This document shows positions 2 through 13,705 of a DNA stretch of 13,705 bases, piece by piece; position 1 is the first letter of the stretch, and each line of letters begins with the position of its first letter. Location of the stretch: positions 64,001-77,705 of IMG/VR virus record IMGVR_UViG_3300036715_001196; one strand, given 5' to 3'. A program made the translations under genes and the position numbers. Below the pieces are notes generated by a model that saw only the letters and a program-made list of their open reading frames with translations, did no database searches and was not told the DNA's origin. This stretch comes from a virus (taxonomy: Duplodnaviria > Heunggongvirae > Uroviricota > Caudoviricetes).

Positions 2-142
2 GATTGCGCATATATGCTCGACTCAAATCCATGCGAGTTAGAAATACTTGCTAAATTCGGTGATGAAAGAGCAATTTTATTATTATCTGCATGTAAGGCA
101 TTTGCAGCTATTAATAAGATACATACACCAGTTATTGCTTGA
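2..142 (+). CDS. 5'-truncated (window edge) C-terminal part of an Ala-Ala-X-X module protein paralogue
   Basis: Frame 2 reads DCAYMLDSNPCELEILAKFGDERAILLLSACKAFAAINKIHTPVIA*, matching the C-terminal domain of the downstream paralogues. TGA at 140-142. Confidence 0.9.
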   Translation, partial: DCAYMLDSNPCELEILAKFGDERAILLLSACKAFAAINKIHTPVIA

Positions 143-167
143 CATCTAGTTCCAACTGTCATATAAT
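139..167 (+). promoter_or_regulatory. sigma70-type promoter
   Basis: TTGACA-17-TATAAT. Confidence 0.92.
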
Positions 168-197
168 TACTACATACAAAGACCGTAGGAGTACAAA

Positions 198-629
198 ATG
201 TCTAATGCATGGGATCACTTACCAAATGCGAAACACATTGATGCATTAATTGCATCAGTTAAAGCACACCCAGAAGAATGGGGTGCGGCATATTATGCGG
301 CAAGGGATGCGGCATATTATGCGGCGTGGGATGCGGCAAGTAATGCGGCATGTAAGGGGGCAAGGCATGCAGCATGGGGTGCAGCAAGGGGTACGACGTG
401 GGAAGCGGCACAAGATGCGGCAAGGTACGTGGCATGGGGTGCAGCAAGGAATGCGGCGGGGGATGCAATACTTGCCCTTATTGCATATGACGATTGTGCA
501 TATATGATCGACTCAAATCCGGGTGAGCTTGAAATAATTGCTAAATTAGGTAACGAAAAGGCAATTTTATTATTATCTGCATGTAAGGCACTTGCAGCTA
601 TTAAGATACATAAACCAGTTATTGCTTGA
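198..629 (+). CDS. Ala-Ala-X-X module protein, 143 aa, 15 modules; function unknown
   Basis: AGGAG 187-191 and its own promoter. 28-aa constant N-terminus, 60-aa module region, 55-aa constant C-terminus. Confidence 0.92.
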   Translation: MSNAWDHLPNAKHIDALIASVKAHPEEWGAAYYAARDAAYYAAWDAASNAACKGARHAAWGAARGTTWEAAQDAARYVAWGAARNAAGDAILALIAYDDCAYMIDSNPGELEIIAKLGNEKAILLLSACKALAAIKIHKPVIA

Positions 630-654
630 CTGTTGATTCCAAGTATCATATAAT
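626..654 (+). promoter_or_regulatory. sigma70-type promoter
   Basis: TTGACT-17-TATAAT. Confidence 0.9.
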
Positions 655-684
655 TACTACATACAAAGACCGTAGGAGTACAAA

Positions 685-1095
685 ATGTCTAATCTATGGG
701 ATCACTTACTAAATGCGAAACACATTGATGCAATACTTGCATCAGTTAAAGCACACCCAAAAGAATGGAGTGCGGCATGGGATTCGGCAAGTAGTGCGGC
801 AAGTAGTGCGGCACGGTTTGTGGCAAGGGGTGCGACATGGGATGTGGCAAGGATTGCGGTGTGGGAAGCGGCAAGGGATGCGGCATGGAGTGCGGCCTGT
901 AGTGCGGCATATTATGCGGCAAGGGATGCAATCGTCGCCCTTATTGCATATGACGATTGCGCATATATGCTTGATTCACAACCAAGTGAACTTGAAATAC
1001 TTGCTAAATTCGGTGATGAAAGGGCAATTTTATTATTACCTGCATGTAAGGCATTTGCAGCTATTAATAAGACACATACACCAGTTATTGCTTGA
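685..1095 (+). CDS. Ala-Ala-X-X module protein, 136 aa, 13 modules
   Basis: AGGAG RBS, promoter 626-654, conserved termini with the INKTHTPVIA tail variant. Confidence 0.92.
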   Translation: MSNLWDHLLNAKHIDAILASVKAHPKEWSAAWDSASSAASSAARFVARGATWDVARIAVWEAARDAAWSAACSAAYYAARDAIVALIAYDDCAYMLDSQPSELEILAKFGDERAILLLPACKAFAAINKTHTPVIA

Positions 1096-1120
1096 CAGTT
1101 GATTCCAGCTATCATATAAT
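1092..1120 (+). promoter_or_regulatory. sigma70-type promoter
   Basis: TTGACA-17-TATAAT. Confidence 0.92.
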
Positions 1121-1150
1121 TACTACATACAAAGACCGTAGGAGTAGAAA

Positions 1151-1582
1151 ATGTCTAATCCATGGGATCACTTACCAAATGCGAAACACATTGATGCATT
1201 AATTGCATCAGTTAAAGCACACCCAAAGGAATGGGGTGCGGCATATTATGCGGCAAGGGATGCGGCATATTATGCGGCGTGGGATGCGGCAAGTAATGCG
1301 GCATGTAAGGGGGCAAGGCATGCAGCATGGGGTGCAGCAAGGGGTGCATCGTGGGATGCGGCAAGGGATGCGGAATGGGATGCGGAATGGGATGCGGCAA
1401 GGAATGCGGCAGGGGATGCAATACTTGTCCTTATTGCATATGATGATTGCGCATATATGCTCAACTCAAATCCATGCGAGTTAGAAATAATTGCTAAATT
1501 CGGTAATGAAAAAGCAATACTTTTATTATCTGCATGTAAGGCACTTGCAGCTATTAAGATACATAAACCAGTTATTGCTTGA
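1151..1582 (+). CDS. Ala-Ala-X-X module protein, 143 aa, 15 modules
   Basis: AGGAG RBS, promoter 1092-1120, conserved termini. Confidence 0.92.
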   Translation: MSNPWDHLPNAKHIDALIASVKAHPKEWGAAYYAARDAAYYAAWDAASNAACKGARHAAWGAARGASWDAARDAEWDAEWDAARNAAGDAILVLIAYDDCAYMLNSNPCELEIIAKFGNEKAILLLSACKALAAIKIHKPVIA

Positions 1583-1607
1583 CAGTTGATTCCAACTGTC
1601 ATATAAT
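1579..1607 (+). promoter_or_regulatory. sigma70-type promoter with a 9-bp palindrome across -35 and spacer
   Basis: TTGACA-17-TATAAT; TGACAGTTG-attc-CAACTGTCA at 1580-1601. Confidence 0.92.
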
Positions 1608-1637
1608 TACTACATACAAACACAGCAGGAGTAGAAA

Positions 1638-2165
1638 ATGTCTAATGCATGGGATCACTTACCAAATGCGAAACACATTGATGCAATACTTGCATCAGTT
1701 AAAGCACACCCAAAAGAATGGGTTGCGGCGTGGAATGCGGCAAGGGTTGCGGCGTGGAATGTGGTAAGGGATGCGGCAAGGGGTGCAGCGTGGAGTGCAG
1801 CCTGGTGTGTGGCGTGGGATGCGGCAAGGGGTACAGCGTGGGATGCGGCAAGTAGTGCGGCAAGTAGTGCGGCAAGTAGTGCGGCAAGGGATGCGGCATG
1901 GAGTGCGGTGTGGGATGCAGCCTGGGGTGCGGTAAGGGATGTAGCAAGTGGTGCGGTAAGGGATGCGGCATATTATGCGGCAAGGGGTGCGGCGTGGGAT
2001 GCAATACTTGCCCTTATCGCGTATGATGATTGCGCATATATGCTCGACTCCGATCCGGGCGAGTTAGAAATACTTGCTAAATTCGGTGATGAAAGAGCAA
2101 TACTTTTATTACCTGCATGTAAGGCATTTGCAGCTATTAAGATACATAAACCAGTTATTGCTTGA
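1638..2165 (+). CDS. Ala-Ala-X-X module protein, 175 aa, 23 modules
   Basis: AGGAG RBS, promoter 1579-1607, conserved termini. Confidence 0.92.
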   Translation: MSNAWDHLPNAKHIDAILASVKAHPKEWVAAWNAARVAAWNVVRDAARGAAWSAAWCVAWDAARGTAWDAASSAASSAASSAARDAAWSAVWDAAWGAVRDVASGAVRDAAYYAARGAAWDAILALIAYDDCAYMLDSDPGELEILAKFGDERAILLLPACKAFAAIKIHKPVIA

Positions 2166-2190
2166 CTGTTGATTCCAGCTATCATATAAT
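2162..2190 (+). promoter_or_regulatory. sigma70-type promoter
   Basis: TTGACT-17-TATAAT. Confidence 0.9.
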
Positions 2191-2220
2191 TACTACTCAT
2201 TAAACAAACAGGAGTACAAA

Positions 2221-2934
2221 ATGTCTAATGCATGGGATCACTTACCAAATGCGAAACACATTGATGTATTAATTGCATCAGTTAAAGCACGCCCAAAAGA
2301 ATGGAGTGCGGCATATTATGCGGCAAGGGATGCGGCATATTATGCGGCGTGGGATGCGGCAAGTAATGCGGCATGTAAGGGGGCAAGGCATGCAGCATGG
2401 GGTGCAGCAAGGGGTACGACACGGGAAGCGGCACAAGATGCGGCAAGGTATACGGCATATTATGCGGCAAGGGGTGCGGTGTGGGATGCAATACTTGCCC
2501 TTATTGTATATGATGATTGCGCATATATACTCGACTCCGATCCGGGCGAGTTAGAAATACTTGCTAAATTCGGTGATGAAAGAGCAATACTTTTATTACC
2601 TGCATGTAAGGTATTTGCAGCTATTAAACATGTTAAATGGATCGGACCAGTGTTTAGGTGTGCTAAATTCCATTTGTCGCCGGGAATCAAACAGAAGGAC
2701 GGGATGCTTAATTATATATGTCTAGCAATCGACAATGTTATCGCAGTTCCAGATGAAGCAAAGTCTGCTGCAAGGAAAATAATTAATGACAGGCTAGATG
2801 GCTATGCGGATGTATCTATTTGGTTGCAACATGTAGCTGGAATTCATCCGCGTCGACTTTCATATAAGGCAGTACAAACATTCCGGCACGAATGGCTCGA
2901 TGAATTGATTAAAGAGTTTTCAGTAAATGACTAA
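2221..2934 (+). CDS. Ala-Ala-X-X module protein (15 modules) fused to an unrelated ~100-aa C-terminal domain, 237 aa
   Basis: Matches the family up to ...AAIK (~2628), then continues in frame as HVKWIGPVFRCAKFHL...RHEWLDELIKEFSVND. Confidence 0.88.
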   Translation: MSNAWDHLPNAKHIDVLIASVKARPKEWSAAYYAARDAAYYAAWDAASNAACKGARHAAWGAARGTTREAAQDAARYTAYYAARGAVWDAILALIVYDDCAYILDSDPGELEILAKFGDERAILLLPACKVFAAIKHVKWIGPVFRCAKFHLSPGIKQKDGMLNYICLAIDNVIAVPDEAKSAARKIINDRLDGYADVSIWLQHVAGIHPRRLSYKAVQTFRHEWLDELIKEFSVND

Positions 2935-3445
2935 TAAAGAAATTGCAATTAAAGTCTTTAAAAGTCATTTAGCACTTGCACAAGATAGTCCAACTAAGTT
3001 TAAGAATACAGTTATCAACGAGATTATTAAGACACTTGACTGCGGGCTACGTGTTGCAACTGCATTCTATAATGAGGCTGTAAAACAAACCCCTAAGAGC
3101 ATAAAGCTCGTTCGCATTCCTGTCAAGAAGTTTATTATTAAAGACAAGCATAGTAAGGTTGAAACAGTCGAAGTTGAGAGTAGCGAACCTGAAGACGCAG
3201 ATTGTTATACTGTATTTGAGATTGTAGGGCAAGTGGTTGGTCGCACTAAGTCTTTTTCAACAAAGGGAGAAGCTACTAAGGATTTCAGTTTTAGAGTTAC
3301 ATATTGGCCGGACAGCATTTGGTTGATGATTAAAGGTCTTGGTAGGAACTCGGGTGAAGAGTATCGTGTTGAGCGAAAGATGAAATGGGAGTTGAAGCAT
3401 ATTCCTAAACATCTTCAAAAAGAAGTTGATATGGCTTCATCTTGA
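2927..3445 (+). CDS. Hypothetical protein, 172 aa, with an N-terminal helical motif shared with two other genes in the window
   Basis: 8-nt overlap with the upstream gene, weak AAAGAG RBS, long open frame. Motif VINEIIKTLDCGLRVATAFYN. Confidence 0.85.
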   Translation: MTNKEIAIKVFKSHLALAQDSPTKFKNTVINEIIKTLDCGLRVATAFYNEAVKQTPKSIKLVRIPVKKFIIKDKHSKVETVEVESSEPEDADCYTVFEIVGQVVGRTKSFSTKGEATKDFSFRVTYWPDSIWLMIKGLGRNSGEEYRVERKMKWELKHIPKHLQKEVDMASS

Positions 3446-3454
3446 TCATATAAT
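3426..3454 (+). promoter_or_regulatory. sigma70-type promoter with the -35 inside the upstream CDS
   Basis: TTGATA-17-TATAAT. Confidence 0.8.
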
Positions 3455-3484
3455 TACTACTCATTAAACAAACAGGGGTACAAA

Positions 3485-3907
3485 ATGTCTAATACGTGGG
3501 CTCACTTACCAAATGCGAAACACATTGATGTATTAATTGCATCAGTTAAAGCACACCCAAAAGAATGGAGTGCGGAGCGGGATGCGGCAATGGATGCGGA
3601 ATGGGACGCGGCAAGGGATGCAGCATGGAGTGCGGTGTGGGATGCAGCAAGGGATGCAGAGTGGGATGCGGCGTGGGATGCGGCGTGGGATGCGGCAAGG
3701 GATGTGACATGGGACGCGGCAAGTAGTGCGGCATGGAATGCAATCGTTGCCCTTATTGCGTATGATGATTGTGCATATATGCTCAACTCAGCCCCAAGCG
3801 AGTTAGAAATACTTGCTAAATTAGGTGATGGAAGAGCAATACTTTTATTACCTGCATGTAAGGCATTTGCAGCTATTAATAAGACACATACACCAGTTAT
3901 TGCTTGA
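3485..3907 (+). CDS. Ala-Ala-X-X module protein, 140 aa, 14 modules
   Basis: AGGGG RBS, promoter 3426-3454, conserved termini. Confidence 0.92.
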   Translation: MSNTWAHLPNAKHIDVLIASVKAHPKEWSAERDAAMDAEWDAARDAAWSAVWDAARDAEWDAAWDAAWDAARDVTWDAASSAAWNAIVALIAYDDCAYMLNSAPSELEILAKLGDGRAILLLPACKAFAAINKTHTPVIA

Positions 3908-3932
3908 CAGTTGATTCCAGCTGTCACACAAT
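3904..3932 (+). promoter_or_regulatory. Degenerate promoter cassette
   Basis: TTGACA-17-CACAAT; spacer identical to that of 6294-6322. Confidence 0.7.
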
Positions 3933-3965
3933 TACCACACATTAAACAACCCACAAGAGTACAAA

Positions 3966-4382
3966 ATGTCTAATCCATGGAATCACTTACCAAATGCTAA
4001 ACATATTGATGCAATACTTGCATCAATTAAAGCACACCCAAAAGAATGGGGTGCGGCGTGGGGTGCGGCAAGTAGTGCGGCAAGGGGTGCGGCATATTAT
4101 GCGGCAAGGGGCGCGGCAACCAGTGCGGCGTGGGAAGCGGCAAAGGGTGCAGCAAGGAAAGTGGAGTGGGGTGCGGCATATTATGCGGCAAGGGGCGCGG
4201 CAGGTGGTGCGACACAGGGCACGGCAAGGGATGCGGCGTGGGATGCAATCATTGCCCTTATCGCGTATGATGATTGCGCATATATGCTCAACTCAACTCC
4301 AGATGAACTTGAAATACTTGCTAAATTAGGCGATAGAAGAGCAATACTTTTGTTACCTGCATGTAAGGCATTTGCAGCCTAA
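3966..4382 (+). pseudogene. Decaying Ala-Ala-X-X module protein copy (16 modules, 138 aa, C-terminal 9 aa lost)
   Basis: A net 2-nt deletion (gcagctattaagata to gcagcctaagata) creates TAA at 4380-4382. Its -10 box is CACAAT and its RBS is AAGAG. It may still be translated from read-through mRNA. Confidence 0.7.
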
Positions 4383-4403
4383 GATACATAAACCAGTTAT
4401 TGC

Positions 4404-4432
4404 TTGACAAATAATCCCAACTGTCATATAAT
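4404..4432 (+). promoter_or_regulatory. sigma70-type promoter
   Basis: TTGACA-17-TATAAT. Confidence 0.92.
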
Positions 4433-4464
4433 TACTACATACACAAACATAACAGGAGTACAAA

Positions 4465-4830
4465 ATGCTTAAACGTGTTATTACGAAGGCCCACAAACAT
4501 CATGGTACAGCATACCCCGCTAAAGCAACAAAATACTTAGTGGACGTTAAACCCGGTGTAAGTGTTGCTATCTTCGACGACAGTACTGGTACAGAAGTTG
4601 CTGGTGCAAGCTTTAAGATTGGTGATCAGGCGGAATACGATTCCTTTAATTTAAGTTATTACGGGACTATCACTGCTATCAGTGAAAAGACTGTAACAAT
4701 AACATCACGCAAAGATACTCGAAACGAAAAAGTATATCGGTTGGATATGCACAAATTTTGCTGGCGTAATTACAACTTCAATTTAGAGAAAGCCCAAGCA
4801 GAGAATACTGAAACTAGCATGTATATCTAA
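4465..4830 (+). CDS. Hypothetical beta-rich phage-type protein, 121 aa
   Basis: AGGAG RBS and promoter 4404-4432. Motif FKIGDQAEYDSFNLSYYGTITAISEKTVTI suggests an SH3-like barrel (inference). Confidence 0.88.
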   Translation: MLKRVITKAHKHHGTAYPAKATKYLVDVKPGVSVAIFDDSTGTEVAGASFKIGDQAEYDSFNLSYYGTITAISEKTVTITSRKDTRNEKVYRLDMHKFCWRNYNFNLEKAQAENTETSMYI

Positions 4831-4831
4831 C

Positions 4832-5161
4832 ATGCCTGTCTTTGCATCATTAGGGCATCAAATGCAGTGTAACAAACGCAACGGTTATAAACCTGATCGT
4901 TGCGTTTGTGACAAAGACCCTGCCCTTAAAGGGGCTAAAGGTGGCAACTGTAACAGATAAGCATGCCAAGCACCTAATGCTTACTGGTACAACAAAGGCA
5001 CAAACAAATTCTATTGCGAAGATTGTGCTAAAATGATTAACCGGCAACCAACACAAGTCAGTACAGTACATACTTGTGTTCAATTCAGCCACCCGACGAA
5101 AATGTTGACTCCTAGAACCGTGTGTGCTAACATACAAACTTATGGAGGCACACATGGCTAG
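4832..5161 (+). pseudogene. Cys-rich, zinc-finger-like gene interrupted by an in-frame TAA at 4958-4960
   Basis: Manual translation: MPVFASLGHQMQCNKRNGYKPDRCVCDKDPALKGAKGGNCNR*ACQAPNAYWYNKGTNKFYCEDCAKMINRQ... The stop splits a C-x4-C...C-x2-C motif. ATG lies 1 nt after the upstream TAA. Confidence 0.65.
5105..5133 (+). promoter_or_regulatory. sigma70-type promoter, extended -10
   Basis: TTGACT-17-TAACAT with upstream TGn. Confidence 0.6.
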
Positions 5162-5285
5162 AGTCCCAACTCAAGAAGAAATTCAACACATCATGGAAAT
5201 TACGGGCTTGGAATACACCCAAGCCTATAATCACCTCGTACAATGCTACGAGTTACAAGACCGTAAGGCGCGAGGTAAATTATGA
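5154..5285 (+). CDS. Small protein, 43 aa (MARVPTQEEIQHIMEITGLEYTQAYNHLVQCYELQDRKARGKL)
   Basis: GGAGG 5144-5148, promoter 5105-5133. Below the ORF-track cutoff; translated by hand. Confidence 0.8.
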   Translation: MARVPTQEEIQHIMEITGLEYTQAYNHLVQCYELQDRKARGKL

Positions 5286-5389
5286 TATTCTGGTTAATGA
5301 TAGTATGTATATTTCTACTGTTGAATAATAGTATCTTCATTGGGCTTGCACTTTTAGCATTGATAATTTATTTAGATAAAAAGCGTTGA
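5282..5389 (+). CDS. Small membrane peptide, 35 aa (MIFWLMIVCIFLLLNNSIFIGLALLALIIYLDKKR)
   Basis: ATGA overlap with the previous gene, hydrophobic with a basic tail. The stop is the TGA of the next TTGACA. Confidence 0.65.
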   Translation: MIFWLMIVCIFLLLNNSIFIGLALLALIIYLDKKR

Positions 5390-5414
5390 CAACGGAACCT
5401 ACTTCCGGTATAAT
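5386..5414 (+). promoter_or_regulatory. sigma70-type promoter
   Basis: TTGACA-17-TATAAT; spacer contains CGGAA/TTCCG inverted repeat. Confidence 0.92.
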
Positions 5415-5451
5415 ACATACATCGCAAACATTATTATATAAGGAGTAGCAA

Positions 5452-6285
5452 ATGTCAATTCAACAAGTAAAAGATAAGTGTGCAGAGGTTTTCGCTAAAG
5501 CAACAGAACTGTACGGTGTTGATTGCTCTGCCGTAGCTATTAACTTCAACTTGCGTGGGCGTGTTGCAGGAAGCGCATCTAGACAAGGTTACTGTAATGG
5601 CCCACAAAAGCATACCTTAGAATTCAACAAAGACTTGATTGATCGTGAATTAGACACCATACTTACCGATGTAGTTCCGCATGAAATTGCTCATATCGTG
5701 TGTTTTATGAACCCAAGACTAGGTTCTAACCACGATGCTGGTTGGGCGCATGTATGCAGAAAGCTAGGCGGTACTGGTAGTCGAACACATAGTATGCAGA
5801 TTGTGTTTGGTAAAGGCAAAACATACGAATACACGACGACAGCTGGTGTAGCTATTCGTCTAAGCGAGCAGAGACATAAGGCAGTGCAAAAAGGTGGAAC
5901 ATTTACTTGCAAAGTTAGAAGCAAAGGTAAAATCAACAAGGAATGCTCGTTCACTATTGTCGGCATTGCTGGGCAAACACTTTCTAAACCAATTGCTGGT
6001 AACGTTCCAACAACACCGCTTGTAGATGGAGTGTCTGAAATACCAAAAGCACCTATAGTAGCAGATATTGCTAAAGAATTAAAAATACCTGTAGTGAAAG
6101 TAAAGTTAGCCAAAGGTAATGAAAGTAAGGCCGATGCTGCTAGACGTTTAATAAGTGTAGGCTTTGAAAGCGGCTTACACGAAAGTGAAATCATTGCCAG
6201 TATTATGCAAGCTAACGAGTTTGACTTACGTTTGGCTACTGCTTACTACAAAAACAATGCAAAGAAGCTTGGGTTTATTAGTTAA
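5452..6285 (+). CDS. sprT: SprT-like zinc metalloprotease (family-level call) with a C-terminal helical domain, 277 aa
   Basis: VVPHEIAHIVC (HExxH, aa 77-81), a downstream H-x-x-x-W motif (HDAGW) and N-terminal FNLRGRVAG, as in SprT proteins. AAGGAG RBS, promoter 5386-5414. Confidence 0.85.
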   Translation: MSIQQVKDKCAEVFAKATELYGVDCSAVAINFNLRGRVAGSASRQGYCNGPQKHTLEFNKDLIDRELDTILTDVVPHEIAHIVCFMNPRLGSNHDAGWAHVCRKLGGTGSRTHSMQIVFGKGKTYEYTTTAGVAIRLSEQRHKAVQKGGTFTCKVRSKGKINKECSFTIVGIAGQTLSKPIAGNVPTTPLVDGVSEIPKAPIVADIAKELKIPVVKVKLAKGNESKADAARRLISVGFESGLHESEIIASIMQANEFDLRLATAYYKNNAKKLGFIS

Positions 6286-6293
6286 AATAATAG

Positions 6294-6322
6294 TTGACAG
6301 TTGATTCCAGCTGTCATATAAT
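6294..6322 (+). promoter_or_regulatory. sigma70-type promoter
   Basis: TTGACA-17-TATAAT. Confidence 0.92.
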
Positions 6323-6352
6323 TACTACACATTAAACAAACAGGAGCAAACT

Positions 6353-6664
6353 ATGTATCCAATATTACTTAAATGTGTTTATATACACCTGCTAACAGTT
6401 GAAGCAAGTTCAGTTGAAGAAGCAATTGAAATTGCTAATGAAGATTATTGTATCTGTGATAACGATATTACTACAATCGAGGGTGATTGGGAATTGGATG
6501 ATACAGACTTTGCTTCTGCTGAAATGTTCAGTAATTGGCAAGACAGTCCCGTCGATGTTATCAAAGAAGCAAATAAGCTGTTGGTAGCTCACGGTTTAGT
6601 GTTTGTTGAGCAGGAAACCGATAAAGATACATATCAATTCGTATTGCAGAAAGTAGGCACATAA
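6353..6664 (+). CDS. Acidic hypothetical protein, 103 aa
   Basis: AGGAG RBS, promoter 6294-6322. Confidence 0.85.
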   Translation: MYPILLKCVYIHLLTVEASSVEEAIEIANEDYCICDNDITTIEGDWELDDTDFASAEMFSNWQDSPVDVIKEANKLLVAHGLVFVEQETDKDTYQFVLQKVGT

Positions 6665-6900
6665 TGAAAACAATTCAAGAAATCAAAACACTTGCTTCAC
6701 AGGCATCTTTCTTTGTACTACCATCCGGTACTCGTCTTCGTATGCGATACTGTAATGCGGAGATGTTCTCCGCATATGAAGAAGGCACTAATGTGAAGCA
6801 TTGGATTCGCTACGAAGCAGTCGATCTTAACGATGGCGAAACAGACTTTTTAGCATTAACCAGTTTGAAACACCCGCAGACTACACGGAGTATATCATGA
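6664..6900 (+). CDS. Hypothetical protein, 78 aa
   Basis: TAATG stop/start overlap with the upstream gene. Confidence 0.75.
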   Translation: MKTIQEIKTLASQASFFVLPSGTRLRMRYCNAEMFSAYEEGTNVKHWIRYEAVDLNDGETDFLALTSLKHPQTTRSIS

Positions 6901-7238
6901 CAGTAGATGTCCAAGGTAAGACAATTTGCGTCAATCAAAAGGTTGCTCGTGCTGCGAAATTACAAGTAAAGGATGGTTTGTGTATCCAAATCTGTACTGT
7001 AACACGTATCAATGAGGGGGCAGTATATCTCGACAATAGCAAACAGCCTATGAAGTTCCCTGAGCGGTTAGCTATTGTGGAACGTGCTCCACTCAATGAA
7101 GTTCAAGAGAATGTATTAAATGGGTATCACGAACGACTTGATAACGATGAGATTGCTGAAGAATACGACTTACTTGAAACCGAAGTTGCTGATATAATCG
7201 ATTGGCTGGATGAAAACGGCTATCATGTAAATGATTAA
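6897..7238 (+). CDS. Hypothetical protein, 113 aa, with a beta-rich N-terminus and an acidic HTH-like C-terminus
   Basis: ATGA overlap and GGAG RBS. C-terminal DEIAEEYDLLETEVADIIDWL has HTH-like spacing (inference). Confidence 0.8.
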   Translation: MTVDVQGKTICVNQKVARAAKLQVKDGLCIQICTVTRINEGAVYLDNSKQPMKFPERLAIVERAPLNEVQENVLNGYHERLDNDEIAEEYDLLETEVADIIDWLDENGYHVND

Positions 7239-7243
7239 AGTTG

Positions 7244-7272
7244 TTGACAAATGATTTCATTCGCAGTATAAT
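7244..7272 (+). promoter_or_regulatory. sigma70-type promoter
   Basis: TTGACA-17-TATAAT. Confidence 0.92.
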
Positions 7273-7302
7273 TATTACACATTAAACAAACAGGAGTACA
7301 AG

Positions 7303-7692
7303 ATGGAATCATTGCAAGAACGCATCCTTGAAGTATGTAATAACTTCTCAGAAGCAAGGTTCTCTAATTACTACAGCGGTCGTTGTATGTATAACCGTCA
7401 GTGTGTTGGTATTACAGGCAGCATGCATGAATGCATGAATGCAATTGCACACCTTGTCAAGAGCATGACTTCCGAATTGTGTCGAACTGCACGTGATGCA
7501 GATACACAGGGGGATATGGTTGAGTCACTTGATAACATGCAAGATCGCTTCGAACGTGATATCGATACTCTGCTTGACTTCAAGCAAGACAGTATGGGGT
7601 GTGATATTATTATCTATTGGGAACGTTTAACACCTATCGAAAACTTCGAAGACGAAGACGAAGACGAAGACGAAGACGAAGACGAGTTTTGA
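7303..7692 (+). CDS. Hypothetical protein, 129 aa, with an (ED)6 acidic tail
   Basis: AGGAG RBS, promoter 7244-7272. Confidence 0.88.
   Translation: MESLQERILEVCNNFSEARFSNYYSGRCMYNRQCVGITGSMHECMNAIAHLVKSMTSELCRTARDADTQGDMVESLDNMQDRFERDIDTLLDFKQDSMGCDIIIYWERLTPIENFEDEDEDEDEDEDEF
7648..7683 (+). repeat. (GAAGAC)6 coding microsatellite
   Basis: Six perfect hexamer units encoding EDEDEDEDEDED. Confidence 0.95.
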
Positions 7693-7717
7693 CATAGTAA
7701 TAAATCTGCATTACAAT
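7689..7717 (+). promoter_or_regulatory. sigma70-type promoter overlapping a terminator
   Basis: TTGACA-17-TACAAT. Confidence 0.8.
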
Positions 7718-7748
7718 ATGGGCTGCTTATGTAGCCCATATTGTTTTT
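7713..7748 (+). terminator. Intrinsic terminator
   Basis: ACAATATGGGCTGC-ttat-GTAGCCCATATTGT (14 bp, one G-U) followed by TTTT. Confidence 0.75.
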
Positions 7749-7763
7749 ATAAAGAGTAATAGA

Positions 7764-8012
7764 ATGATTAAAATACTTATAGTAGGTTTCCTAATCGGAA
7801 CATGGTACGGTATCTTTACCTCGGAGCTTGCAGGGTCTTTGATCTGTATTACATCCGCAATACTAGCATACTATGCAGAGGCATATCCTATAAAACAAAG
7901 GCACACTCGTAAGCATGCCCCTAGTCAGCCCAACACACTGCAACTGCTTGACGAGCAGTGTTGTGAGTCGTCAAGCTTAAATTCTGACCCTAGGTTTCCA
8001 ACCCAAAAGTGA
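7764..8012 (+). CDS. Putative membrane protein, 82 aa
   Basis: Two hydrophobic N-terminal segments. Promoter 7689-7717; RBS is weak (AAAGAG). Confidence 0.6.
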   Translation: MIKILIVGFLIGTWYGIFTSELAGSLICITSAILAYYAEAYPIKQRHTRKHAPSQPNTLQLLDEQCCESSSLNSDPRFPTQK

Positions 8013-8091
8013 AAACCAGATTTGGTTTTTAAAATTGGAAATTTAATTCCAAATCCTATGCGAAAATCTTGCCTATAGGTCTAAACAGGTA

Positions 8092-8120
8092 TTGACCTAA
8101 GTCCCTTTGTGTCATATAAT
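8092..8120 (+). promoter_or_regulatory. sigma70-type promoter
   Basis: TTGACC-17-TATAAT followed by the cassette leader. Confidence 0.85.
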
Positions 8121-8150
8121 TACTACATATTAAACAAACAGGAGCATAAC

Positions 8151-8363
8151 ATGGCACAATTTTTATTAGTATCAACTGAGCAACGGCTTGCAATATTGAA
8201 GCGTTCGTTATCGACATTTATTGATCGATGTGAAGGTACTGAATGGGAGGCTGATATTAACGCAGCACAGACTATGTTAGATGAGTTACAGTCTAACACT
8301 GACGTAACAACAGCTACATCTGCAGTCCTTAGTAATTGGTGTGATACTGTACCTGCACAATGA
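8151..8363 (+). CDS. Hypothetical protein, 70 aa (start reassigned from 8109)
   Basis: Cassette leader with AGGAG and ATG 8151 exactly 30 nt after TATAAT 8115-8120. Confidence 0.8.
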   Translation: MAQFLLVSTEQRLAILKRSLSTFIDRCEGTEWEADINAAQTMLDELQSNTDVTTATSAVLSNWCDTVPAQ

Positions 8364-8436
8364 CGCGCTAGTATTCTATATTCCACAAATTTATTGTAAT
8401 ATAGCAACCAAAGTAGCCAAATGAATGCCTGAATAC

Positions 8437-8464
8437 TTGACTACTTTTATTTTGACTGTATAAT
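8437..8464 (+). promoter_or_regulatory. sigma70-type promoter with no downstream gene
   Basis: TTGACT-16-TATAAT. Confidence 0.6.
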
Positions 8465-8470
8465 ATAGAT

Positions 8471-8586
8471 ATTCTATATATTCACATAGGCACTACGTAT
8501 CTCGTCTACCGGAACAGGGGTTAGCCGATCTCTACAAGGGGTAGTTGGAACAGTATTCGAAAGGATGTGTTCCGACTATTTTTTTT
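8471..8586 (+). ncRNA. Candidate ~115-nt non-coding RNA
   Basis: Promoter 8437-8464 followed by a stretch with no ATG or RBS-led ORF, ending in a GAAA-loop hairpin plus T8. The 5' end is estimated. Confidence 0.45.
8542..8586 (+). terminator. Intrinsic terminator
   Basis: TAGTTGGAACA...GAAA loop...TGTTCCGACTA followed by T8. Confidence 0.75.
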
Positions 8587-8680
8587 GGATTATGTTTCAG
8601 GATTTGAAAATCTAGATTGGGAGTATAGTATAGGTTGGGTAGTGTATTGCTGTATAGCATTCACACTCCTAGGTTTTCAA

Positions 8681-8713
8681 TCCTACATCGAATTCCTACA
8701 TCGAATTCCTACA
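8681..8713. repeat. 13-nt tandem repeat TCCTACATCGAAT x2.5
   Basis: Units start at 8681, 8694 and 8707 (partial). Confidence 0.9.
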
Positions 8714-8740
8714 AAGGTACTGTAGTAAGCACTTACTTTG

Positions 8741-8869
8741 GTACCTCACACCTCGCGGCCTATCATCTAGGGAAAATTTGCGAGGTTGACCAACAACTGC
8801 TGTACCTCACACCTCGCGGCCTATCATCTAGGGAAAATTTGCGAGGTTGATCAATGGCTGTACCTCACA
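8741..8869. repeat. Identical 49-nt direct repeat x2 (period 61) plus a partial third copy
   Basis: GTACCTCACACCTCGCGGCCTATCATCTAGGGAAAATTTGCGAGGTTGA at 8741-8789 and 8802-8850; GTACCTCACA again at 8860-8869. Confidence 0.93.
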
Positions 8870-8944
8870 ACGAACTAATAGGTTGGTCGTGTGTTACCCG
8901 TGAAGTACAGCCACAAGAATACAGCATTGCAAAGTATTCAGTCA

Positions 8945-8974
8945 CAAATAAAGCCCCTTGCGGGGCTTTATTTG
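8945..8974 (-). terminator. Intrinsic terminator, probably bidirectional
   Basis: Perfect 13-bp stem CAAATAAAGCCCC/GGGGCTTTATTTG with a GCAA loop on the - strand, 7 nt past the stop of 8982..9389. Confidence 0.88.
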
Positions 8975-8981
8975 CTTTCTG

Positions 8982-9389
8982 TTACGCTTTGACTAATGCA
9001 GCTTTCTTTGTCTTTGCAGCTTTTTCGATCGCTGCATCTGCTTCTGCTTCTGTTACACCAAGCAAGACAAGTGAATTATCTTTCTTTTTGTACACATTAA
9101 ACAGCTTTACTGCTGGCGCTGTTTCAATAACTTCTGCTACTTTCTTTTTGCGCCCGCCGTTATTTTTGCCTTCGGGGCGGCCTAAACCAACTACAAGCTC
9201 GGGATGTGCAGCTTTGCACTGTTTGAATGCGAAATTGTAGTGTGTTGCTGCCGCTGCTCGCGTGCAATCAAATTCCAGTTCTAACCAAGCAAGAATCTCT
9301 TTACGGAAACGTGTGTTGCCGAGTTCTGCACGTTGTGGCAACATTTCCATAAATTTGTTGTTTGCTGCTGGGCGAATACCTTTGTCCAT
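8982..9389 (-). CDS. Hypothetical protein, 135 aa (MDKGIRPAANNKF...; start reassigned from 9452), sharing a helical motif with 2927..3445
   Basis: AAGGAG RBS and a consensus promoter upstream on the - strand; terminator 8945-8974 downstream. Confidence 0.88.
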   Translation of the reverse strand: MDKGIRPAANNKFMEMLPQRAELGNTRFRKEILAWLELEFDCTRAAAATHYNFAFKQCKAAHPELVVGLGRPEGKNNGGRKKKVAEVIETAPAVKLFNVYKKKDNSLVLLGVTEAEADAAIEKAAKTKKAALVKA

Positions 9390-9420
9390 TTTACTACTCC
9401 TTATGTGTTTGTGTATCAAA

Positions 9421-9449
9421 ATTATACTGCGAATGGAACTACTTGTCAA
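9421..9449 (-). promoter_or_regulatory. sigma70-type promoter (- strand, proximal)
   Basis: TTGACA-17-TATAAT on the reverse complement. Confidence 0.92.
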
Positions 9450-9666
9450 CAACTATTTGCATTTATTTTTGCATCTAGTTAAGGAGTTGTATTTCCTAAC
9501 TCCATGTATTGATTATATAGATAGTAGTTCCACGTGTCAACCACTATTTTACCAAAATTTAAATTATTTTTAAATCGTGCAGCTTATGCTCGTCAATCAT
9601 GTTTGTCGTCGCGAGGTGTACTCTGCTAGTAAAATAAATGCAAATAGTAGTTGACAAGTAGTTCCA
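9434..9666. repeat. 36-bp inverted repeat (35/36 identical): 9434-9469 and 9631-9666
   Basis: AAAATAAATGCAAATAGT(T/A)GTTGACAAGTAGTTCCA, covering the upstream A-tract and -35 of two divergent promoters. Confidence 0.9.
9512..9540 (-). promoter_or_regulatory. sigma70-type promoter (- strand, distal)
   Basis: TTGACA-17-TATAAT on the reverse complement. Confidence 0.85.
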
Positions 9667-9679
9667 GGTATCATATAAT
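9651..9679 (+). promoter_or_regulatory. sigma70-type promoter
   Basis: TTGACA-17-TATAAT with an A-rich upstream tract. Confidence 0.92.
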
Positions 9680-9709
9680 TACTACACATTAAACAAACAG
9701 GAGTAGAAA

Positions 9710-10153
9710 ATGTCTAATCCATGGGATCACTTACCAAATGCGAAACACATTGATGCCATAATTGCATCAGTTGAAGCACACCCAGAAGAATGGGCTGCGG
9801 CGCGGACTGCGGCTCGGGTTGCGGCGTGGGATGCGGCAAGGAATGCGGTGTGGAATGCGGCATATAGTGCGGCGTGTGATGCGGCAAGGAATGCGGAGTG
9901 GAATGCGGCAGGTGGTGCGGCGGCGGATGCGGCAAGTAGTGCGGCAAGTAGTGCGGCATATTATGCAGCAAGGGGCGCAGCGGGGGATGCAATCATTGCC
10001 CTTATCGCGTATGATGATTGCGCATATATGATCGACTCAAATCCGGGCGAGCTTGAAATACTTGCTAAATTCGGTAATGAAAAAGCAATTTTATTATTAC
10101 CTGCATGTAATGCATTTGCAGCTATTAAGATACATAAACCAGTTATTGCTTGA
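9710..10153 (+). CDS. Ala-Ala-X-X module protein, 147 aa, 16 modules; orphan copy 5.3 kb from the main array
   Basis: AGGAG RBS, promoter 9651-9679, conserved termini. Confidence 0.92.
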   Translation: MSNPWDHLPNAKHIDAIIASVEAHPEEWAAARTAARVAAWDAARNAVWNAAYSAACDAARNAEWNAAGGAAADAASSAASSAAYYAARGAAGDAIIALIAYDDCAYMIDSNPGELEILAKFGNEKAILLLPACNAFAAIKIHKPVIA

Positions 10154-10178
10154 CAAATGATTCCAATTATCATATAAT
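10150..10178 (+). promoter_or_regulatory. sigma70-type promoter
   Basis: TTGACA-17-TATAAT. Confidence 0.92.
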
Positions 10179-10209
10179 TACTACACATTAAACAAACAGG
10201 GGTAACAAC

Positions 10210-10410
10210 ATGCTTAACCAAAAACAACAAGCACTAAGTCTATTAGCCCAATCTAAAGCGGCAATGGACAATGCCATAATATTGTTTAATCAAGCTGCTG
10301 ATGCTGTAGCTGACTTGGATTTAGACTTCGATGAAGACCCGTGCTATGCTGCTAGCGAGTTTGAACAACACATAAATGATTTTCGAGATGTATTAAATAA
10401 TGATCGATAA
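10210..10410 (+). CDS. Small acidic helical protein, 66 aa
   Basis: AGGGG RBS, promoter 10150-10178. Confidence 0.8.
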   Translation: MLNQKQQALSLLAQSKAAMDNAIILFNQAADAVADLDLDFDEDPCYAASEFEQHINDFRDVLNNDR

Positions 10411-10443
10411 CTGAAAGTAAGTGTGCTATAATGCACTTACTTT
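10404..10443 (+). promoter_or_regulatory. Extended -10 promoter inside a 10-bp inverted repeat
   Basis: TCGATA-17-TATAAT with TGn; AAAGTAAGTG/CACTTACTTT. Confidence 0.78.
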
Positions 10444-11723: not shown

Positions 11724-11747
11724 AAGCAGGCTACGGTCTGCTTTTTT
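11724..11747 (+). terminator. Intrinsic terminator with a C(UACG)G tetraloop
   Basis: AAGCAGGC-TACG-GTCTGCTT followed by TTTT. Confidence 0.88.
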
Positions 11748-11816
11748 AATGGACACAAGTACCTCGGAACCTAGCCGTAGGTCCATATATAAATTGTGAG
11801 ATACTTAAAATAGTGC

Positions 11817-12181: not shown

Positions 12182-12207
12182 AAAAAGCAGGCTACGGTCT
12201 GCTTTTT
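12182..12207 (+). terminator. Intrinsic terminator, duplicate of 11724-11747
   Basis: AAAAAGCAGGC-TACG-GTCTGCTTTTT. Confidence 0.88.
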
Positions 12208-12350
12208 AATGGCCACAAGTATCTCGGAACTACTAACAGAGCTAGTCGAGCCATAGTTGTGAGGTATATAAGCCTTTAACTGATCCTACCTCGGAACTTA
12301 TATAACCTAACCTAAGGTTATGCTTTGTCTTCGAGAGTATAAAATAAAGG

Positions 12351-13133: not shown

Positions 13134-13363
13134 AGCAATATTAGATTGCTATTTTTATTTGCTATTTTTATTTCCTATTTTTGCCTCGTGTTCTGACCAC
13201 AGGCCTATATGTAAAACACGAGAGCATATACGCGCTACCCTACATAAACTAAAAAGCAATCTAATATTGCTTTTTTATTTCCTATTTTTACCTCGCTGCT
13301 TGCCTGCCGTCGCCTATATGTAAAACACGAGAGCATATACTCGCTACCCTACATAAACTAAAA
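13134..13363. repeat. Two imperfect direct-repeat units, each with a 17-bp palindromic site, a T-rich tract and a 52-nt block
   Basis: 52-nt block at 13203-13254 and 13312-13363 (1 mismatch). The 17-mers at 13134-13150 and 13255-13271 are exact reverse complements. Confidence 0.88.
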
Positions 13364-13705
13364 GACTATGTCTTGACACCTTTACCATTTAAGGATAGAT
13401 ACCTCACGCATTAAACACGGACCTAAAGCAGGTTATAGATTATCTCCGAGGTACTAAAAGACTTGTTGACAAATGACAACACAGATACCTCACGCATTAA
13501 ACACGAACCTAAAGCAGGTTATACATTGTCCCCGAGGTACTAAAAGACTATGTCTTGACACCTTTACCATTTAAGGATAGATACCTCACGCATTAAACAC
13601 GAACCTAAAGCAGGTTATACATTGTCCCCGAGGTACTAAAAGACTATGTCTTGACACCTTTACCATTTAAGGATAGATACCTCACGCATTAAACACGAAC
13701 CTAAA
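13358..13705. repeat. Non-coding tandem array with 96/86/96-nt units plus a partial fourth, running off the window
   Basis: CTAAAAGACT starts at 13358, 13454, 13540 and 13636. The complete units contain TTGACA and TACCTC-N42-GAGGTA. Confidence 0.93.

Follow-up and report, generated by a model that had tools for sequence, protein, structure and literature searches.

A repeated promoter–leader cassette ahead of unrelated genes in a contig assigned to an uncultured jumbo phage

The window analysed here, 13,705 nucleotides (nt) long, is the final 13.7 kb of a 77,705-bp viral contig from the IMG/VR database (IMGVR_UViG_3300036715_001196; 37% GC). Near-identical copies of a block comprising a promoter, a leader and a ribosome-binding site precede unrelated genes in this window, which raises the question of whether the block is a recurrent signal or a portable cassette inside which recombination takes place. 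Cassettes of the latter kind are known as promoter-early stem-loop (PeSL) elements from the T4-type phages RB49/phi1, PST/T4 and nt-1/KVP40 (PMC2839356; PMC4122927), and their anatomy includes a stem-loop that commonly lies between the −35 and −10 hexamers (PMC2839356). It is likely that the copies described below form an early-gene expression cassette family of the PeSL type in a clade of jumbo phages with a T4-type capsid. A preliminary description of this DNA had already called the block a portable PeSL-type expression cassette; this label is supported, and the comparison with the two publications is apt.

Anatomy and copies of the cassette

The unit of ~59 nt consists of a TTGACA hexamer, a 17-nt spacer, a TATAAT hexamer, the discriminator TACTAC, an A/C-rich leader and a GGAG Shine–Dalgarno (SD) sequence located 6–7 nt ahead of the ATG. 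The window contains 12 full copies, whose −35 hexamers start at positions 139, 626, 1092, 1579, 2162, 3426, 4404, 6294, 7244, 8092, 9651 and 10150 on the plus strand, as well as one decayed copy (3904) and one half copy on the minus strand (9449). In the whole 77.7-kb contig there are 24 copies, and the 10 located beyond the window are all on the plus strand. The 12-nt core TATAATTACTAC was found in the window as 11 exact matches; with up to 2 mismatches allowed there were 15 matches versus 2.7 expected, a number reached by 0 of 200 shuffles, and contig-wide there were 23 forward matches with up to 1 mismatch. The copies are listed below together with the genes that they are predicted to drive (paralogues are members of one helical-repeat gene family; ORF is open reading frame) and with two features used for comparison.

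139–197, plus strand: cassette with leader variant ATACAAAGACCGTAGGAG; drives paralogue 198–629; its −35 overlaps the TGA of the upstream paralogue
626–684, plus strand: cassette with −35 TTGACT and the leader variant of 139; drives paralogue 685–1095
1092–1150, plus strand: cassette with a moderate spacer hairpin (−6.8 kcal/mol); drives paralogue 1151–1582
1579–1637, plus strand: cassette with a perfect spacer palindrome (9 bp, 4-nt loop; −12.3 kcal/mol, z −5.4) and leader variant ATACAAACACAGCAGGAG, which is found within 1 nt in relatives G004 and L031; drives paralogue 1638–2165
2162–2220, plus strand: cassette; drives fusion ORF 2221–2934
3426–3484, plus strand: left-truncated cassette, homology beginning ~5 nt before the −10; −35 and spacer lie inside the final codons of an unrelated 172-aa gene (2927–3445); drives paralogue 3485–3907
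3904–3965, plus strand: decayed cassette with −10 CACAAT and SD AAGAG; precedes paralogue 3966–4382
4404–4464, plus strand: cassette trailing the last paralogue of the array, with hybrid arms and no hairpin; drives unrelated ORFan 4465–4830
5386–5451, plus strand: SprT promoter of another type, for comparison; spacer hairpin CGGAA..TTCCG, leader ACATACATCGCAA
6294–6352, plus strand: free cassette after SprT with no paralogue on either side and a strong hairpin (−13.2 kcal/mol); drives ORFans 6353–6664, 6664–6900 and 6897–7238
7244–7302, plus strand: free cassette; drives ORFan 7303–7692; right arm ATTCGCAG is otherwise found only in the 9449 promoter
8092–8150, plus strand: free cassette with −35 TTGACC and a divergent spacer; drives ORFan 8151–8363
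9390–9449, minus strand: half cassette with its own leader, promoter of a conserved 135-aa gene (8982–9389, minus strand)
9434–9666: 36-nt inverted repeat with 97% identical arms (9434–9469 and 9631–9666)
9651–9709, plus strand: chimeric cassette; drives paralogue 9710–10153
10150–10209, plus strand: cassette trailing paralogue 9710–10153; drives ORFan 10210–10410

As judged from sequence alone, the promoter matches the sigma-70 consensus at 12 of 12 hexamer positions with a 17-nt spacer in most copies. The predicted transcription start is an A located 7 nt past the −10, which gives a predicted leader of 24–26 nt that is more than 50% A and weakly folded. The leader occurs in four variants, one shared by 139, 626 and 1092, a second in 1579 and a third in 4404; the leader quoted in the preliminary description is present and is merely one of the four. 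The TGA stop codon of an upstream paralogue lies inside the TTGACA of the −35. At its centre, the spacer reads TTTC in copy 7244 and TCCC in copies 4404 and 8092. The perfect sigma-70 promoter, the TACTAC discriminator, the fixed A-rich leader and the GGAG would together drive early genes. Outside the window, a long (TAA)n microsatellite separates the −10 from the leader in the copy at contig positions 4699–4790.

The cassettes precede the paralogue family and at least 10 unrelated ORFans. All coordinates and arm pairings given earlier are present in the sequence, and near-identical blocks do stand before the genes starting at 4465, 6353, 7303, 8151 and 10210; BLASTP at E ≤ 0.01 matched none of these five genes with another or with a paralogue. 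Pfam returned nothing significant for the driven genes and PHROGs no family with a known function, and no relative of ORFan 4465 was found in IMG/VR. The suggestion that the cassettes delimit single-gene units did not hold, as 6294 precedes three genes and the stretch between 4404 and 6294 holds ~6. Another ~30 consensus promoters of the contig have unrelated spacers and leaders; the exact sequence is thus not required by function alone, which points to the cassettes being copies by descent.

The completeness of the contig was estimated using CheckV (~20%). All of its ORFs are 516 aa or shorter and include homing endonucleases, ATPases and very many small ORFs; the largest 10 were scanned and the matches were HNH endonucleases and ATPases. 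No structural genes were found in this contig, which covers ~20% of the genome. A megablast search with 9.3 kb of sequence against cultured phages gave no match, and the nearest cultured match is that of a contig ATPase, 56% identical to its counterpart in the Pseudomonas jumbo phage PA5oct. Related uncultured contigs are 328 kb and 369 kb long, the latter being complete with terminal repeats. Because these related contigs (G001 and G006) encode a gp23-family capsid protein of the T4 type (E 7e-96) and a RecA/UvsX-family protein, the contig is assigned, on the sequence evidence, to an uncultured jumbo phage of ~330–390 kb whose relatives carry T4-type core genes. In the complete relative G006 the corresponding region lies near one genome end. 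tRNA and Rfam scans of the window gave no matches.

Mosaicism and strain-level breakpoints

The pairwise homoplasy index (PHI) test of 10 paralogue-to-paralogue junctions gave p = 0.007. Two left-arm types of the spacer and two leader types, differing at 6 nt or more, occur in all four combinations. Cassette 9651 repeats the 9449 promoter in inverted orientation over 19 upstream nt, the −35 and the left arm; in both of these divergent promoters the 36-nt patch stops at the spacer centre, TTCCA. The left part of the 9449 promoter is common to 9651 and its right arm to 7244 only. An orthologue of the 9449 promoter precedes the 135-aa gene in the relative L026 as well, and therefore the 9651 copy is the chimera.

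It had been proposed that the spacer halves assort freely around the centre. Four clear hybrid spacers exist and the mosaicism is real, but the arms are weakly linked (p 0.03–0.04). The complementarity of the arms is 6.5 pairs versus 6.2 in random re-pairing (p = 0.03, or 0.006 with G–U pairs), and the arm types are associated in a 2 × 2 table (6 and 4 in the first row, 0 and 5 in the second; Fisher p = 0.044).

Strain variants were taken from contigs of the Joint Genome Institute (JGI) from six samples, 97–100% identical to the window. It was revealed that divergence from the window steps between 0% and ~8–20% inside cassettes 9651, 10150, 3426 and 4404. Contigs L057 and L060, which come from two samples and are identical across their 390-nt overlap, have 0 differences in 8139–9666, 45 in 9667–10201 and 0 in 10202–10432, so that the divergent tract begins in the right arm of cassette 9651, includes the paralogue and stops at the SD of cassette 10150. 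The L057 allele of cassette 10150 differs at 6 of 60 nt; its spacer is that of the contig copy 43484 and its leader that of copy 2162, and both alleles are built from arms and leaders present elsewhere in the genome. Contig L064 shows 0 differences in 2476–3429, through the 172-aa gene, and its first differences (3430 and 3461) lie in cassette 3426. Contig L042 is ~20% divergent up to 4379, has 3 differences inside cassette 4404 and is then 0.9% divergent. In L042 and L045, four changes abut the −35 of 6294. Logan contigs of four public runs, compared with the window, end in cassettes, with joints that are short-sided or come from other paralogues or related phages. The excision, mini-circles and reordering put forward in the preliminary description found no support in these contigs or in at least six near-identical strains, whose gene order is the same across all cassettes.

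The divergence steps and the allele swap at 10150 bear out the claim that recombination is resolved inside the cassettes, and the data as a whole support exchange or conversion of the adjacent paralogue gene as well as transfer of a cassette to SprT (see below). General homologous recombination and gene conversion would resolve inside the cassettes because ~24 copies in the same orientation share 30–59 nt of near-identity. Such exchange would swap the adjacent gene or allele, reshuffle the left arm, right arm and leader, and carry the cassette to new genes.

Strain contig L056 has a 45-nt in-frame insertion at 9141 in the 135-aa gene 8982–9389 (minus strand).

The spacer palindrome and the promoters of related phages

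The spacer of the cassette forms an imperfect 9-4-9 palindrome of 22 nt, composed of TGACA plus 4 nt, the loop ATTC and the complement. Two self-complementary versions are found, with the inner arms AATG/CATT and GTTG/CAAC, as well as hybrids of them. The self-complementary versions have folding energies of −10 to −13 kcal/mol (z −4 to −5.4), as in 1579, 6294 and the contig copy 61969, and in read-through transcripts of the upstream gene the palindrome could form a hairpin.

The existence of two self-complementary versions also suits an operator for a dimeric regulator of the phage or host that turns early promoters off, the arm variants then being operator variants; a dimer bound at the palindrome centre, between the −35 and −10, would stand in the way of RNA polymerase. 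We regard this as improbable: the compensated arm changes and the unrelated stems at the same position in L026 fit a fold better, the symmetry is lost in many copies, and Pfam and PHROG scans identified no regulator. Readings of the palindrome as a LexA, CRP or Fur box or as attC were dropped by eye, as the spacing and cores are unfit and the arms vary. The motif TGCTTGA as a MotA box was also dropped; this motif encodes the end of the paralogue, and its distance from the −10 is too great.

Palindromes recurring between small genes on one strand recall an integron, and the preliminary description had called the exchange integron-like. That the palindromes are the sites of a dedicated recombinase is extremely improbable. 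The attC sites of integrons and of clusters of attC sites lacking integron-integrases (CALIN) are imperfect palindromes of at least 55 nt with paired core sites, and their cassettes are promoterless, whereas the palindrome described here is just 22 nt long, is missing in half of the copies and lies inside a promoter. No ORF of the window exceeds 277 aa (SprT), and the 10 scanned large ORFs of the contig match no integrase. Each unit has its own promoter, and the breakpoints are spread over the arm, leader and SD. The comparison therefore fails on the integrase, the attC architecture and the promoterless cargo. The likeness concerns the outcome only, namely that small genes are exchanged as units between repeated sites, with neither attC architecture nor a common Pc promoter and with exchange that would be homology-dependent, not site-specific.

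Promoters matching the consensus are dense in the clade (0.5–1.35 per kb) and show varied spacer hairpins, a TCC-rich spacer centre and conserved A/C-rich leaders. The central TTCC had been named as the point around which the spacer halves assort. The inverted patch does end there, but the TCC-rich centre is found clade-wide, and the TTCC is thus an inherited architectural feature, part of a conserved hairpin loop and not a mere scar.

G004 and the metagenome contig L031 also carry one of the leader variants of the cassette, with 29 of 30 nt identical in G004 and an exact match of 29 nt in L031. An exact search of IMG/VR and JGI metagenomes with the main leader variant gave nothing beyond the contig's own record, and sequence searches found the second variant in G004-type contigs only. 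In L031 the cassette separates SprT from a gene for a small membrane protein, two genes that are also neighbours in the window. The SprT promoter of the window resembles those of the more distant L032 and L035, whereas L031 has the TACTAC cassette at this place. SprT is 59% identical at the nucleotide level between L031 and the window, and the cassette is their sole exact match of 20 nt or more. This comparison shows a promoter replacement at an orthologous gene and agrees with the earlier proposal that the cassette is portable. In JGI contigs no SprT relative closer than 51% was found. Between the conserved, convergent anchors SprT and the 135-aa gene, G000, L026 and L034 have entirely different gene sets. 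Nearest-neighbour distances of all promoters, within versus between genomes, gave no clean signal and were set aside.

The conservation of the leader may also be explained by selection only, the exact promoter, discriminator and leader being an optimal or specifically recognised early signal and recombination having no special part. The leader is identical over 29 nt in L031 and over 29 of 30 nt in G004 while coding DNA is ~51–59% identical, a second leader family (ACATACATCGCAAC..AGGAG) recurs in G000, G004, L026, L027, L033 and L035, and a TCC spacer centre is enriched in L026 (11 of 22 promoters). Such a signal is at odds with the unrelated spacers and leaders of the ~30 other promoters, and selection does not account for the PHI result, the divergence steps and allele swap inside cassettes or the replaced SprT promoter in L031. 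We therefore consider selection only to be rather unlikely.

The PeSL model alone explains every feature but one, the strictness with which the leader is conserved between divergent phages. We suggest, tentatively and with more doubt than belief, that a phage factor recognises TACTAC and the A/C-rich leader as a signal in trans (a leader-specific nuclease, a translational repressor or an RNA-polymerase modifier, for example), so that at least 24 cassette-driven genes would form one post-initiation regulon. This would explain 29 identical nt between phages with ~59% identical genes.

Two observations concern the promoters of relatives. L026 (relative G007) has 22 consensus promoters in 16 kb, many with the leader ACATACATCGCAACAAGGAG before unrelated genes; its spacer hairpins have unrelated sequences and compensated stems, and these promoters form a sister cassette family. 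In G004 (17967–18362; L021, ~10381) the ATG lies 7 nt past the −10 of a promoter trailing a paralogue, a candidate leaderless mRNA.

Origin of the cassette, counter-evidence and known systems

In this phage lineage the cassette originated primarily as the trailing promoter of the expanded helical-repeat gene family. Copies 4404 and 10150 and the contig copies 61421 and 62775 trail a paralogue, and in the relative G004 paralogues have no upstream cassette but do have a trailing promoter with TGA inside the −35, as is also seen in G000. This origin explains the cassettes that drive unrelated genes after arrays (4404 and 10150). It does not explain the free copies without an adjoining paralogue (6294, 7244, 8092 and the contig copies 61969 and 49235). 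The same trailing copies, the G004 paralogues and the TGA in G000 and G004 could suggest that the cassette is a by-product of paralogue duplication, a 3′ promoter of the family whose "unrelated genes" are whatever follows the array. Given the free copies and the L031 cassette, which sits between a small membrane-protein gene and SprT, this explanation is unlikely.

Some members of the paralogue family and some driven genes have peculiarities of their own. In the fusion ORF 2221–2934 (237 aa) the N-terminal ~140 aa are a paralogue, and the C-terminal ~96 aa are 35–40% identical to the 113-aa proteins (contig positions 61480 and 62027) that are encoded elsewhere behind a paralogue and a cassette; the paralogue end, the cassette and the start of the next gene appear to have been lost by deletion. 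Paralogue 3966–4382 has an early TAA after a 2-nt loss relative to other copies, as well as the mutated −10 and SD of its cassette, and looks to be in decay, while strain contig L042 has an intact ending of the 3904–4382 region. The (CGAAGA)6.5 repeat at 7647–7685 encodes an Asp/Glu tail of ORFan 7303–7692; its contig depth in public runs is very high and is drawn from unrelated organisms.

The remainder of the window contains further repeats. The gene-free stretch 8400–8950 has a 13-nt tandem repeat (8681–8713) and two ~60-nt direct repeats (~8741–8811 and ~8802–8869) with no tRNA or Rfam match, and is closed by a bidirectional terminator (8945–8974). Near-identical terminator hairpins with shared flanks follow different genes at 11724–11775 and 12186–12235, a repeated terminator module. 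Tandem repeats of 96 nt (3.7 copies, each with a TTGACA) occupy 13357–13705 and reach the end of the contig; JGI contig L055 extends ~2.7 kb past this end (13705).

Several points weigh against the reading of the copies as PeSL-type cassettes in which recombination is resolved. A strong hairpin is found at 1579, 3904 and 6294 and at the contig copies 61421 and 61969 only; in about half of the copies, among them 4404, 7244, 8092, 9651 and 10150, the fold is no more stable than that of shuffled sequences. Breakpoints of strain contig L061 lie in the core of a paralogue and 57 nt upstream of cassette 2162, and the cassettes are therefore seams but not the sole seams. No gain, loss or move of an ORFan was seen in the near-identical strain contigs. 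Assemblers can mis-join at repeats and the replicated haplotype is that of L057 and L060 only, and L042 and L064 could be chimeric, having incorporated paralogues of the unsequenced ~80% of the genome. Some promoters have stayed with their gene (the 135-aa gene in G000 and L026; SprT in G000, L032 and L035), and selection could explain a leader conserved at 29 of 29 nt across phages whose genes are ~59% identical. The comparison of gene order and breakpoints that had been proposed as a check gave a divided outcome: the steps lie inside cassettes, but the strains have the same gene order and the L061 breakpoints lie outside.

The likeness to PeSL elements extends to a ~60–70-nt repeat of an upstream stop codon, a sigma-70 promoter, a stem-loop (here in some copies), an SD and an ATG, to density in ORFan-rich regions (24 copies per 77.7 kb here), and to recombination between the −10 and ATG or inside the promoter, which here too would be general and without a dedicated recombinase. 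There are differences as well. The putative carrier is an uncultured jumbo phage (~330–390 kb), and its relatives have only a gp23-type capsid in common with T4-type phages; roughly half of the copies have a weak stem-loop or have lost it; the stop codon lies within the −35 itself; the discriminator and leader vary far less, with up to 30 nt identical; one leader variant is conserved between divergent phages; and the family is tied to one expanded gene family.

Small early-gene arrays with near-consensus host-type promoters and strong ribosome-binding sites near a genome end are also found in the terminal redundancy of SPO1 and in T5. The early promoters of T5 have a conserved initial transcribed region, which may be compared with the conserved sequence past the −10 here. 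To our knowledge, the early promoters of SPO1 and T5 have not been described as near-identical portable blocks or recombination seams. Lambdoid morons are insertions of a promoter, a gene and a terminator that place autonomously expressed accessory genes between other genes; we know of no single repeated promoter sequence shared among morons and of no moron promoter that is a crossover site.

If the preferred reading is right, PeSL-type mobile regulatory cassettes would be extended from classical T4-like phages to an uncultured clade of ~330–390-kb jumbo phages. The evidence comes from natural populations, in which strain variants from several metagenomes point to crossovers that resolve inside a 59-nt promoter block. 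Such cassettes may be a route by which giant phages diversify batteries of host-takeover genes without a dedicated recombinase, and the conservation of a leader between phages is a hint of an extra regulatory layer.

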